DNA of 54,892 nt from a virus (lineage: Duplodnaviria; Heunggongvirae; Uroviricota; Caudoviricetes). A model generated the notes under the pieces. It was not told the origin of the DNA. It searched no databases and saw only the letters and a list, made by a program, of their open reading frames with translations. A program made the position numbers and the translations under genes. Position 1 is the first letter of the stretch, and each line of letters starts with the position of its first letter. The stretch lies in the IMG/VR virus record IMGVR_UViG_2568526312_000015; one strand, 5' to 3'. Shown piece after piece: positions 12,620 through 14,322 of the stretch.

Positions 12620-12724
12620 ATGATTTTCGACGAAAATGGCGACATGATGCTTGCATTTTTCAAAAAAAATGGATAATATTTTCTCAATGATAGGCATTGT
12701 GTGTCCGGCTTTAATAAAAAGTAG

Positions 12725-12752
12725 AAAACCCGCTGATGTGTGGGTTTTTTTT
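12725..12752 (+). terminator. Candidate tR'-like terminator downstream of the putative late promoter
   Basis: AAAACCC–10-nt loop–GGGTTTT hairpin followed by a T run. Confidence 0.45.
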
Positions 12753-12830
12753 CGGAATTTTAGATGTGTGGCATTGAAATGGTATTCGGCGAGTAGGTAG
12801 AATTTAAACTTTCGTCTCGTCTGGATCGAC

Positions 12831-13373
12831 ATGATGTTTCAAGCCTTCCAAACAGCAGTATTTAAAAATGTTGCAGAGTATTTAAAAGGGCGCTTCCCTC
12901 ATAAGTCGTTAGGGCTCGTATATGCCGACGAGCTGGTACTAAAAGATATGGAGTTCCTCAAGGCTAACAATAAACTGCGGTGGGATCCCGGACTAAAGTC
13001 GCGAGTGTTTATGGATATGATGGAAGAACACCCGATAAAACTAGTTGTTTATTATCGTGGGGAGCCTATTGGATTTGCATTTGGGTGTTACTGTAAGCCG
13101 AAAAATGCGGTGCATATTTGCTGGATGGAAAAACGTAATGATGCACATGAAGACCTAGACCATCAGATGCTTGGTATCGTTTTGGATTGCTTCTCTGCAT
13201 ATGCACGATTTCTGAACCTTCAGGGTGAATCTATTGATTCGATAGCTTTAGTTAGTCCAGTTGATGGGGCAATAAGATACTATACTGAAAGTGGTTTTGA
13301 GTACATTGCTGATTACGAACGAGGTGGTTGCGCAATGGTGCTTAGGAGCGTTTTACCTAACCAATCAGTGTGA
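12831..13373 (+). CDS. Cargo (moron) gene; hypothetical, possibly acyltransferase-fold
   Basis: 180-aa ORF in a low-GC island between Q and the lysis genes; C-terminal region ALVSPVDGAIRYYTESGFEYI loosely GNAT-like; unverified. Confidence 0.4.
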   Translation: MMFQAFQTAVFKNVAEYLKGRFPHKSLGLVYADELVLKDMEFLKANNKLRWDPGLKSRVFMDMMEEHPIKLVVYYRGEPIGFAFGCYCKPKNAVHICWMEKRNDAHEDLDHQMLGIVLDCFSAYARFLNLQGESIDSIALVSPVDGAIRYYTESGFEYIADYERGGCAMVLRSVLPNQSV

Positions 13374-13564
13374 GTTAGATTCTTAATTTCTCCAGAATCA
13401 TTACAAAAGTATTGAAAACCTCTTTTAGTTGATGCAATCTGGATCCACACAAAGCACACACAAAATGTACTACGCTTTACTTTATACATCTTCAGGTAAC
13501 AAACTTTGTTGCCTTTATGCTTCAAAGAAGCAACTACAGCTTAGTGCTGAACAAGGGGATTTTT

Positions 13565-13750
13565 ATGAAACATCATGAGCAGATAGAGATTGAGGCAGCT
13601 AAAGTCGTCGCCGAACTCTTTGCTGGCAATGCATCTCCAATGGAAACCTTTGGTATTACATGGAGTCAAACTCAGATGTTAGAGCGTAAGAATCCTGGTG
13701 TAGTGATCAAACTAGTACCGGATGACGGTAAAAAACTTGCGTATTGCTGA
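13565..13750 (+). CDS. Hypothetical small protein
   Basis: 61-aa ORF from the ATG with an AAGGGG RBS; followed by a strong terminator. Confidence 0.3.
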   Translation: MKHHEQIEIEAAKVVAELFAGNASPMETFGITWSQTQMLERKNPGVVIKLVPDDGKKLAYC

Positions 13751-13809
13751 TAATTTTTAAAGATTTTTTCAGCTAGAGAATCGATTATTTTACTATAAAT
13801 CGCGAAGGA

Positions 13810-13836
13810 GCCCCACATATTGTGGGGCTTTTTGTT
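13810..13836 (+). terminator. Rho-independent terminator
   Basis: GCCCCACA-TAT-TGTGGGGC hairpin followed by TTTTT. Confidence 0.7.
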
Positions 13837-14007
13837 TCATCTTAGTTAGCCGTTATTCACATTCACTACTTTGCTACTTATCCACTGTAAAAATAAATTG
13901 TGAATTATTTTGTGGCTTATTGTTAGTGTTCTATCAATTTTGTGTGTGATATTCCATTGGCGTGGTTATTATCTGTGCATCGCACTTAAATGTATAAAGC
14001 TCACTAG

Positions 14008-14322
14008 TTGAGACAATCCTACCACCAGTTGGTGGTATCTCATGATTCACTGAATTGCAAATCTTCTGAATTGCTGGATGAGTTTAAATCTCACCGGCGC
14101 TATTTCTCCGTATCAGTCTCCGTGCCTTATACCGATGTCAGGACGCATAAGCCCGTTCAGTTCTACCCGGGTAAACATCCGTGCGAGAAACCGGCGGATA
14201 TGCTCAGGCAAATAATCAATGCCAGTAGTCGACCTGGTGATCTGGTTGCTGATTTCTTTATGGGATTCGGTTCCACAATAAAAGCAGCAATGGCGCTGGG
14301 GCGTCGGGCGTTAGGTGTTTAA
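14008..14322 (+). pseudogene. 5'-truncated remnant of a DNA methyltransferase (N6/N4 type)
   Basis: Encodes only the C-terminal HPCEKP...DLVADFFMGFGSTIKAA motif region; no N-terminal catalytic region upstream; in-frame TAA then further methylase-like residues. Confidence 0.5.

Follow-up and report, generated by a model that had tools for sequence, protein, structure and literature searches.

What kind of cargo does the prophage in IMG/VR virus record IMGVR_UViG_2568526312_000015 (54,892 nucleotides, hereafter the window) carry between its Q antiterminator gene and its lysis genes, and is the expression of this cargo governed by Q? The slot behind Q is the site of the Shiga toxin genes, so that any cargo found there in Escherichia coli O157:H7 deserves checking, and positions 12620-14400 of the window were 100% identical to the O157:H7 strain C1-057. 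The original prediction, made from the sequence alone, had placed here a promoter/terminator unit, a lower-GC segment coding for a 180-amino-acid (aa) protein, a small open reading frame (ORF), a strong terminator and a 5'-truncated DNA methyltransferase fragment. These elements were all recovered, and the low-GC segment is probably a two-gene phage moron encoding a protein of the GCN5-related N-acetyltransferase (GNAT) fold and a small partner. The two genes were inseparable across genera and recurred in phage hotspots, and one of them has a predicted acetyltransferase fold that sequence annotation had missed. The insert borders and deviant base composition, the predicted GNAT fold, and the recurrence of the invariably paired genes at moron and hotspot sites were all computed directly here. 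As to function, a module of phage-host or phage-phage conflict, either toxin/antidote-like or acting in exclusion or abortive infection, with the partner restraining or directing the enzyme, is put forward tentatively. The cassette consists of the following features.

12753-14012, plus strand: low-GC two-gene cassette of 1.26 kb, a probable moron (borders from homology breaks; GC content 39.2%)
12774-12803, plus strand: the cassette's own promoter-like site, TTGAAA-18-TAGAAT (10/12 in the scan), about 60 nt before the start codon
12831-13373, plus strand: gene for the 180-aa GNAT-fold protein (WP_021519681.1, phrog_11949), the start possibly being the second ATG at 12834
13412-13438, plus strand: conserved non-coding block TTGAAA-N15-TGCAAT just after the stop codon of the GNAT gene, a candidate promoter of the small gene
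13494-13514, plus strand: weak hairpin between the two genes (-9.4 kcal/mol, z -2.0)
13565-13750, plus strand: gene for the 61-aa partner protein (WP_000680348.1, phrog_11292), a conserved real gene
13805-13840, plus strand: strong intrinsic terminator ending the cassette (13-bp stem and U-run; -20.2 kcal/mol, z -4.2)

Morons of lambdoid phages, defined after Juhala and Hendrix and exemplified by lambda bor and lom and by HK97 gp15, are extra units located between genes that are adjacent in relatives; they bring along a promoter and a terminator, differ from their surroundings in base composition, and are tolerated in late operons because Q-modified polymerase ignores terminators. The cassette shared these properties. 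It was located between genes adjacent in relatives, with borders at 12752 and 14013. When the end of Q together with the late promoter-terminator unit behind it (pR'/tR') was used as a query, matches were detected in approximately 2,400 complete E. coli genomes, K-12 Qin included, and nearly all of them ended at query positions 549-552, corresponding to 12748-12751 of the window, at the end of the tR' U-run. On the other side, the methyltransferase gene adjoins the 5' side of the holin gene directly in strains Rb-3 and 210205630. The GC content of 39.2% compares with 51.3% in the early region and 50.8% in S-R-Rz, making 12753-14012 the lowest-GC 1.26-kb stretch inside the prophage, and the copies of the cassette in Erwinia, Limnobaculum, L020 and L021 were also below their host flanks in GC content. 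The presence of an own promoter and an own terminator is indicated by consensus and folding evidence. Unlike the lambdoid morons named above, this one comprises two separately terminated genes that always occurred together, and their products are uncharacterised cytoplasmic proteins, not membrane proteins or lipoproteins.

The cassette (12770-13850) was found in 97 of 5,426 complete E. coli genomes, always as a single copy with at least 99.6% identity, and the right-hand junction occurred in the identical set of 97 genomes. This distribution suggests a single acquisition and later spread with the phage, in which a foreign 1.26-kb insert would have been placed right after the Q-controlled tR'. 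The slot behind the same type of Q was occupied differently in other prophages: by cspF/cspB between tR' and the holin gene in K-12 Qin, by a shorter methyltransferase remnant, three tRNAs and other genes in a second E. coli prophage, by two hypothetical genes and an intact methyltransferase gene in a third, and by only one small ORF in strain 23CRST031, where the holin genes follow Q/tR' almost directly. No tRNA was found within 12000-15000 of the window, and an Rfam scan of 12500-14600 returned only sub-threshold chance matches.

The 180-aa ORF proved to be a real and conserved gene. A set of 5.8 billion proteins contained 28 clusters of its family at 90% identity, and a set of 1.84 billion contained 36 representatives at 50% identity, the complete ones being 173-197 aa in length. 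Neither this protein nor the 61-aa protein had a match in Pfam, NCBIfam, PADLOC or a PDB sequence search, and the PHROGs matches of both cassette proteins were families of 'unknown function' only. The AlphaFold2 model (pLDDT 86, pTM 0.84) displayed the complete order beta1-alpha1-alpha2-beta2-beta3-beta4-alpha3-beta5-alpha4-beta6-beta7, that of the GNAT fold, behind an extra N-terminal helix, and the 180-aa protein is thus predicted to be a GNAT-fold protein. The weak acyltransferase-like motif that had been pointed out at the C terminus was borne out at the fold level, as the segment GAIRYYTESGF lies inside the predicted fold with its RYYxxxGF resembling GNAT motif B. Glu100 on beta4 was nearly invariant throughout the family. 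The use of acyl-CoA (coenzyme A) by the protein is plausible from the model, and in the proposed mechanism an acyl group would be moved from acyl-CoA with Glu100 and Tyr151 (alpha4) as the likely catalytic pair.

An enzyme of this kind might serve in lysogenic conversion as a detoxifying or metabolic enzyme that acetylates an antibiotic, a microcin or another small molecule, the small gene encoding an accessory protein or chaperone. One Photorhabdus copy indeed lay near a chloramphenicol-acetyltransferase-like ORF, and the possession of an own promoter-like site is consistent with such a role. However, the family is very small, occurs almost exclusively in prophages and showed no sequence relation to any resistance family in Pfam or NCBIfam, and its strict pairing with a 60-aa protein is foreign to resistance GNATs; we consider a detoxifying function unlikely.

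The small ORF was present as the original prediction had stated, but was not an incidental one. It is a real gene and the obligate partner of the 180-aa gene, a relationship that is new here. Its products formed 44 clusters from the same taxa as the 180-aa family, and in all of the approximately 30 independent loci from across Enterobacterales that were long enough, the small gene was located 106-237 bp downstream of the GNAT gene on the same strand (the window, L002-L006, L013-L018, L020-L022, L025, L027, L030-L032 and L046-L058). The pairing was observed in genome loci of Proteus, two Photorhabdus species, Limnobaculum, Erwinia, Morganella and Xenorhabdus as well as in 13 non-identical IMG/VR contigs, and was maintained in metagenome/genome contigs whose GNAT members shared as little as 34% and 20% identity with the protein of the window. 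No GNAT gene without the partner was seen among these loci, save in three contigs that ended too soon. A small gene standing alone was found in a Xenorhabdus poinarii prophage (L029), in which higBA occupied the place of the enzyme gene and a parE module was present on the other side. The Q-to-holin slot of this locus (L029 2203-5583) contained an intact PF01555 methyltransferase gene, the higBA pair, the lone small gene and a pair of parE and a helix-turn-helix (HTH) gene, and is a collector of toxin-antitoxin modules. No account of the GNAT/61-aa pair emerged from literature searches on the accessions, the PHROG identifiers and prophage defence based on GNAT proteins.

The adjoining methyltransferase pseudogene and the rarity of the family might give the impression that the two ORFs are decaying, functionless remnants of the event that destroyed the methyltransferase. 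Yet both ORFs were intact in 97 of the 97 E. coli genomes, their length and motifs were kept in E. coli, Proteus, Photorhabdus, Xenorhabdus and still other members, even where identity fell to 20%, and intact copies were located beside intact methyltransferase genes. This explanation is hardly credible, being effectively refuted by the pattern of conservation.

An alignment of 28 sequences of the small protein showed the invariant residues L18, P25, M26, F29, W33 and L39 within the conserved core LFA..G..PME.FG..W....LER..P. The predicted structure consisted of three short helices and a floppy tail, usually containing a cysteine; no resemblance in the PDB, no Pfam match and no HTH signature were found. 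The small protein would act as a regulator, an inhibitor or a substrate of the 180-aa enzyme. If it were the substrate, the enzyme might acylate or extend it, for example at the Cys-containing C-terminal tail, to yield a signalling or antagonistic peptide. The obligate pairing agrees with this idea, as does the recurrence of a Cys among the last 1-8 residues even in distant partners, and separate transcription units would permit a different dosage of the two products. On the other hand, conservation and model confidence were lowest in the tail of the protein, leader or signal features were lacking, and no neighbours of the type accompanying ribosomally synthesized and post-translationally modified peptides (transporter, protease) were present, making modification of the partner an improbable function. 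A 12-nt perfect inverted repeat (12830-12841/13566-13577) that could link both start codons as an RNA switch was rejected as probably due to chance, as only the closest relative kept a part of it (9 nt).

The transcription signals of the cassette were compared among the loci. In 12 of 21 non-redundant loci, a site equivalent to the promoter-like site of the window began 50-80 nt ahead of the start codon, with hexamers differing by lineage; the shuffled upstream regions gave such a site in 1.3 loci on average (maximum 6). Within the conserved block behind the GNAT gene, TTGAAA and GCA..CTG were invariant in five loci with diverged flanks, and distant loci possessed strong sigma-70 matches in the same place (TTGACC-16-TATAAT and TTGACC-17-TAGAAT). 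The block could serve the small gene as a promoter, the leader then containing a terminator, or it could be the source of a short RNA. Its 15-nt spacing is unusual for sigma-70, and sigma-32 and sigma-54 readings made by eye were dropped, as neither the spacing nor the conservation fitted. The small gene was preceded by a good ribosome-binding site. At the position of the hairpin between the two genes, the Erwinia, Photorhabdus and Limnobaculum loci had clear terminators; RNAalifold detected no conserved structure in the inter-gene spacer, and the hairpins are locus-specific terminators. An equivalent of the strong terminator was present after the small gene in six of the six loci examined. 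The module would be laid out as an own promoter, a divergent GNAT-fold enzyme, a promoter-like block with a hairpin, a helical partner and a strong terminator.

The pair was most commonly located directly downstream of Q and followed by holin genes (at least 16 loci). The Q genes upstream were of the PF03589, PF06530 or CHP02642 types, and those of the PF03589 type were only approximately 35% identical to the Q of the window. The order was Q, pair, intact methyltransferase and holin in L016, and Q, intact methyltransferase, pair and holin in Photorhabdus cinerea. Other copies were inserted in tail operons, between a tail chaperone-like gene and the tape measure gene or between tail K-like and I-like genes, and further copies were found beside a CI repressor gene and at non-phage chromosomal sites. 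In a P2-like prophage the pair was located between gpA and the portal gene (gpA-gpQ), facing away from the portal operon. This region of P2 is a hotspot of anti-phage systems, which in P2 itself holds old and tin (Rousset et al. 2022, PMC9122126). In a single case, L021/L022, the pair lay between a Q-like gene and the holin gene but was antisense to late transcription: the stretch 2775-5881, from a high-GC host, carried the distant GNAT/partner pair beside umuDC, with all four genes opposite to the late genes. Only one of 50,697 phage records contained the pair (ON470584, originating from a survey that located phages in clinical E. coli isolates), and plasmids gave a single fragmented match.

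The frequent position behind Q raises the possibility of a mainly Q-driven helper or anti-defence enzyme that acylates a host protein or small molecule during lytic growth to favour phage production, with the small gene as its regulator; such an enzyme would be comparable to the GNAT-fold anti-CRISPR AcrVA5. In favour of this are the sense orientation right after Q in the commonest location, seen with three Q families, and the likewise sense orientation of the tail-operon copies relative to the late genes. The promoter scan found no plus-strand promoter-like site between the cassette and the holin gene of the window, and by the lambda Q paradigm the late transcript from pR' is therefore expected to cross both cassette genes in sense. 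A mainly late function is nevertheless difficult to reconcile with the own promoter-like site at a conserved distance and the terminator after each gene, with the copies that are antisense to the late operon, located in the P2 gpA-gpQ hotspot or at non-phage chromosomal sites, with a small protein lacking an HTH signature, and with the near absence of the pair from the phage records. We regard it as rather unlikely.

Because of the conserved own promoter and the copies located outside or antisense to late operons, the module appears to be autonomous and not purely Q-dependent, and is probably expressed in the lysogen as well. Transcription from the own promoter would be at a low level in the lysogen, and Q-modified polymerase would transcribe the genes strongly on induction. 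The expression on induction proposed in the original prediction is in this respect reasonable by the lambda Q paradigm, but is not simply Q-driven. As regards the late cargo slot, the location from Q and pR'-tR' to the lysis genes, the sense orientation and the other cargo in relatives agreed with such a slot, while the suggested toxin or virulence function found no support, neither cassette protein having toxin, effector or virulence homology in Pfam, NCBIfam or PHROGs. The cassette thus resembles Stx-type cargo in its slot between pR'-tR' and the lysis genes, in the read-through expected from pR' and in its resident neighbours, with a PF01555 methyltransferase gene and tRNAs in related prophages, and differs from it in the lack of toxin homology, in the own promoter-like site and in the copies found outside the slot and antisense to late transcription.

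The reading as a conflict module is favoured here because of the fixed pairing, the mobility, the hotspot sites including that of P2, the neighbourhoods rich in toxin-antitoxin genes and the one orphan locus with the partner only. The pair may possibly represent an unrecognised two-component system based on a GNAT fold hidden from sequence methods, an autonomous cassette that spreads in lambdoid and P2-like prophages of Enterobacterales from one moron or defence hotspot to another and receives a boost by Q read-through on induction. Likeness to known GNAT toxin-antitoxin systems (TacAT, AtaRT and KacAT) was seen in the combination of an approximately 175-aa GNAT-fold protein with a small partner on mobile DNA, and in the occurrence of an orphan partner with no orphan enzyme. 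E. coli YjhQ (GNAT)/YjhX-TopAI is a two-gene module of approximately 180 aa and fewer than 90 aa; there the first gene encodes the small protein, which is the toxin, and both proteins belong to Pfam families. The cassette is similar in sizes and in being a two-gene module, but the small gene comes second and neither protein had a Pfam match. AcrVA5 is a small GNAT-fold anti-CRISPR acetyltransferase on mobile elements; both systems consist of a small mobile GNAT-fold enzyme and a small gene after it, the partner here lacking an HTH. A sequence relation to AcrVA5 was not seen, and the cassette is not known to be linked to CRISPR.

Several results weigh against a conflict module or against the enzyme assumed in it. 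In contrast to TacAT, AtaRT and KacAT, the enzyme gene comes first, the partner is downstream instead of upstream, a 106-237-bp spacer with a hairpin or terminator separates the two, and the partner has neither a ribbon-helix-helix (RHH)/DUF1778 antitoxin domain nor any Pfam match. The beta4-alpha3 loop, which in GNATs binds the CoA pyrophosphate, reads R102-N-D-A-H-E in place of Q/R-x-x-G-x-G/A, with the glycines absent and acidic residues next to it; its Arg and the small residue at +3 were kept in the close subfamily, and the loop was unconserved in distant members. Because of this deviation from the pyrophosphate-binding motif, the binding of CoA is not assured, and the fold could be used for another chemistry or for none. 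Sequence models of the GNAT clan did not recognise the family, the only match among 34 members being that of a single one to Acetyltransf_1 at E 0.19. Of the remote-homology search and structure prediction that had been proposed for the 180-aa protein, the AlphaFold2 model supported the GNAT fold, whereas a profile comparison of the family with E. coli RimI (hhalign) was not significant, at a probability of 1.5%. The protein is mildly acidic (pI approximately 5-6), in which tRNA-acetylating toxins are unlike it. The defence-protein models of PADLOC-DB v2 gave zero matches at E<=1 with both cassette proteins, all promoters are consensus matches only, and an antidote role is only thinly supported by the one orphan small gene. 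Should the pair indeed act in defence, addiction or counter-defence, it would be a new enzyme-plus-partner type and provide a function for PHROGs 11949 and 11292; if not, the cassette is an ordinary moron.

The genes and signals flanking the cassette are listed below.

11867-12619, plus strand: Q antiterminator of the QuuQ/YdfT type, 250 aa (PF03589, E 8e-53; annotated as antitermination protein)
12651-12679, plus strand: pR'-like late promoter, TTGCAT-17-TAATAT, by sequence reading; both hexamer regions kept in five prophages with the same Q type
12725-12752, plus strand: intrinsic terminator tR', the left border of the insert (hairpin AAAACCCGC/GTGGGTTTT and U-run)
14013-14382, plus strand: DNA methyltransferase pseudogene, 3' third only (PF01555 positions 156-209 of 221 only)
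14390-14411, plus strand: terminator-like hairpin before the holin gene (hairpin scan and fold; unchanged in strain Rb-3, whose methyltransferase gene is intact)
14459-15732, plus strand: lysis cassette of S holin, lysozyme and Rz (PF05106, E 2.5e-27; annotation)

The -35 hexamer of the pR'-like promoter has only three of six consensus matches, leaving the site unlisted in the generic promoter scan. The tR' region (12684-12760) folded with -21.6 kcal/mol (z -3.1). In the alignment of the five prophages, the hexamers and the tR' hairpin were conserved, with compensatory changes in the stem, and the similarity was gone right after the U-run; the pR'/tR' unit is a part of the Q module. The hairpin at 14390-14411, approximately 50 bp before the holin start, was kept together with the 3' end of the methyltransferase gene in other prophages, and belongs to the methyltransferase/lysis module, outside the insert. 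As this hairpin precedes the holin gene, the expression of the lysis genes would therefore need antitermination even without the insert. On its way to S-R-Rz, Q-modified polymerase would have to read through tR' and the whole cassette with its two genes and terminator, and then through the 14390-14411 hairpin.

The homology of the methyltransferase fragment to intact 350-aa methyltransferase genes extended from 14013-14021 to 14382, with 97% identity to their 3' end. The fragment has lost approximately 683 of 1053 bp at the 5' side, or approximately 228 N-terminal residues, and a complete catalytic domain of an N6/N4 DNA methyltransferase (PF01555) was not found in 14013-14382. It has also decayed further by a G-to-T change at 14320 turning GAA into the nonsense codon TAA (14320-14322), and by a Ser-to-Phe substitution in the FxGxG motif. 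These changes mark it as a pseudogene, in agreement with the RefSeq annotation. The 5' two-thirds of this gene, the usual occupant of the slot, would have been lost at the arrival of the insert or afterwards, with decay of the remaining fragment since. The TTG at 14008 as the start of a methyltransferase ORF was rejected as an artefact of the ORF finder.

In strain C1-057 the region belongs to a prophage integrated beside proA/thrW, which combines lambdoid early, Q and lysis genes with a P27-type terminase, an HK97-type head and a contractile tail. RefSeq labels WP_021519681.1 and WP_000680348.1 of this strain as hypothetical proteins and the third ORF as an incomplete methyltransferase. The same prophage has a second, classical moron directly behind Rz, a gene for a serum-survival lipoprotein of the bor/iss type (15764-16057, minus strand). 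Just upstream of the P27-type small terminase gene, an HNH endonuclease gene is interrupted by IS1203 (IS3 family; 16756-17969, minus strand), its halves lying at 16583-16741 and 18022-18246; the unsplit arrangement is present in strain 23CRST031. The tail-fibre region at 34975-37686 is degraded, with a partial stfP and frameshifted tail-fibre assembly genes beside a pinE-type invertase gene, and the prophage may be without functional tail fibres. After the prophage, positions 41051-54892 carry a second mobile element, a P4-like satellite with genes for an integrase and a primase as well as ogr/delta-like, psu-like and icd-like genes. Its hotspot, especially 42236-45512 with GC content down to 27%, harbours an ABC-three-component (ABC-3C) system, an AAA ATPase gene and hypothetical genes.

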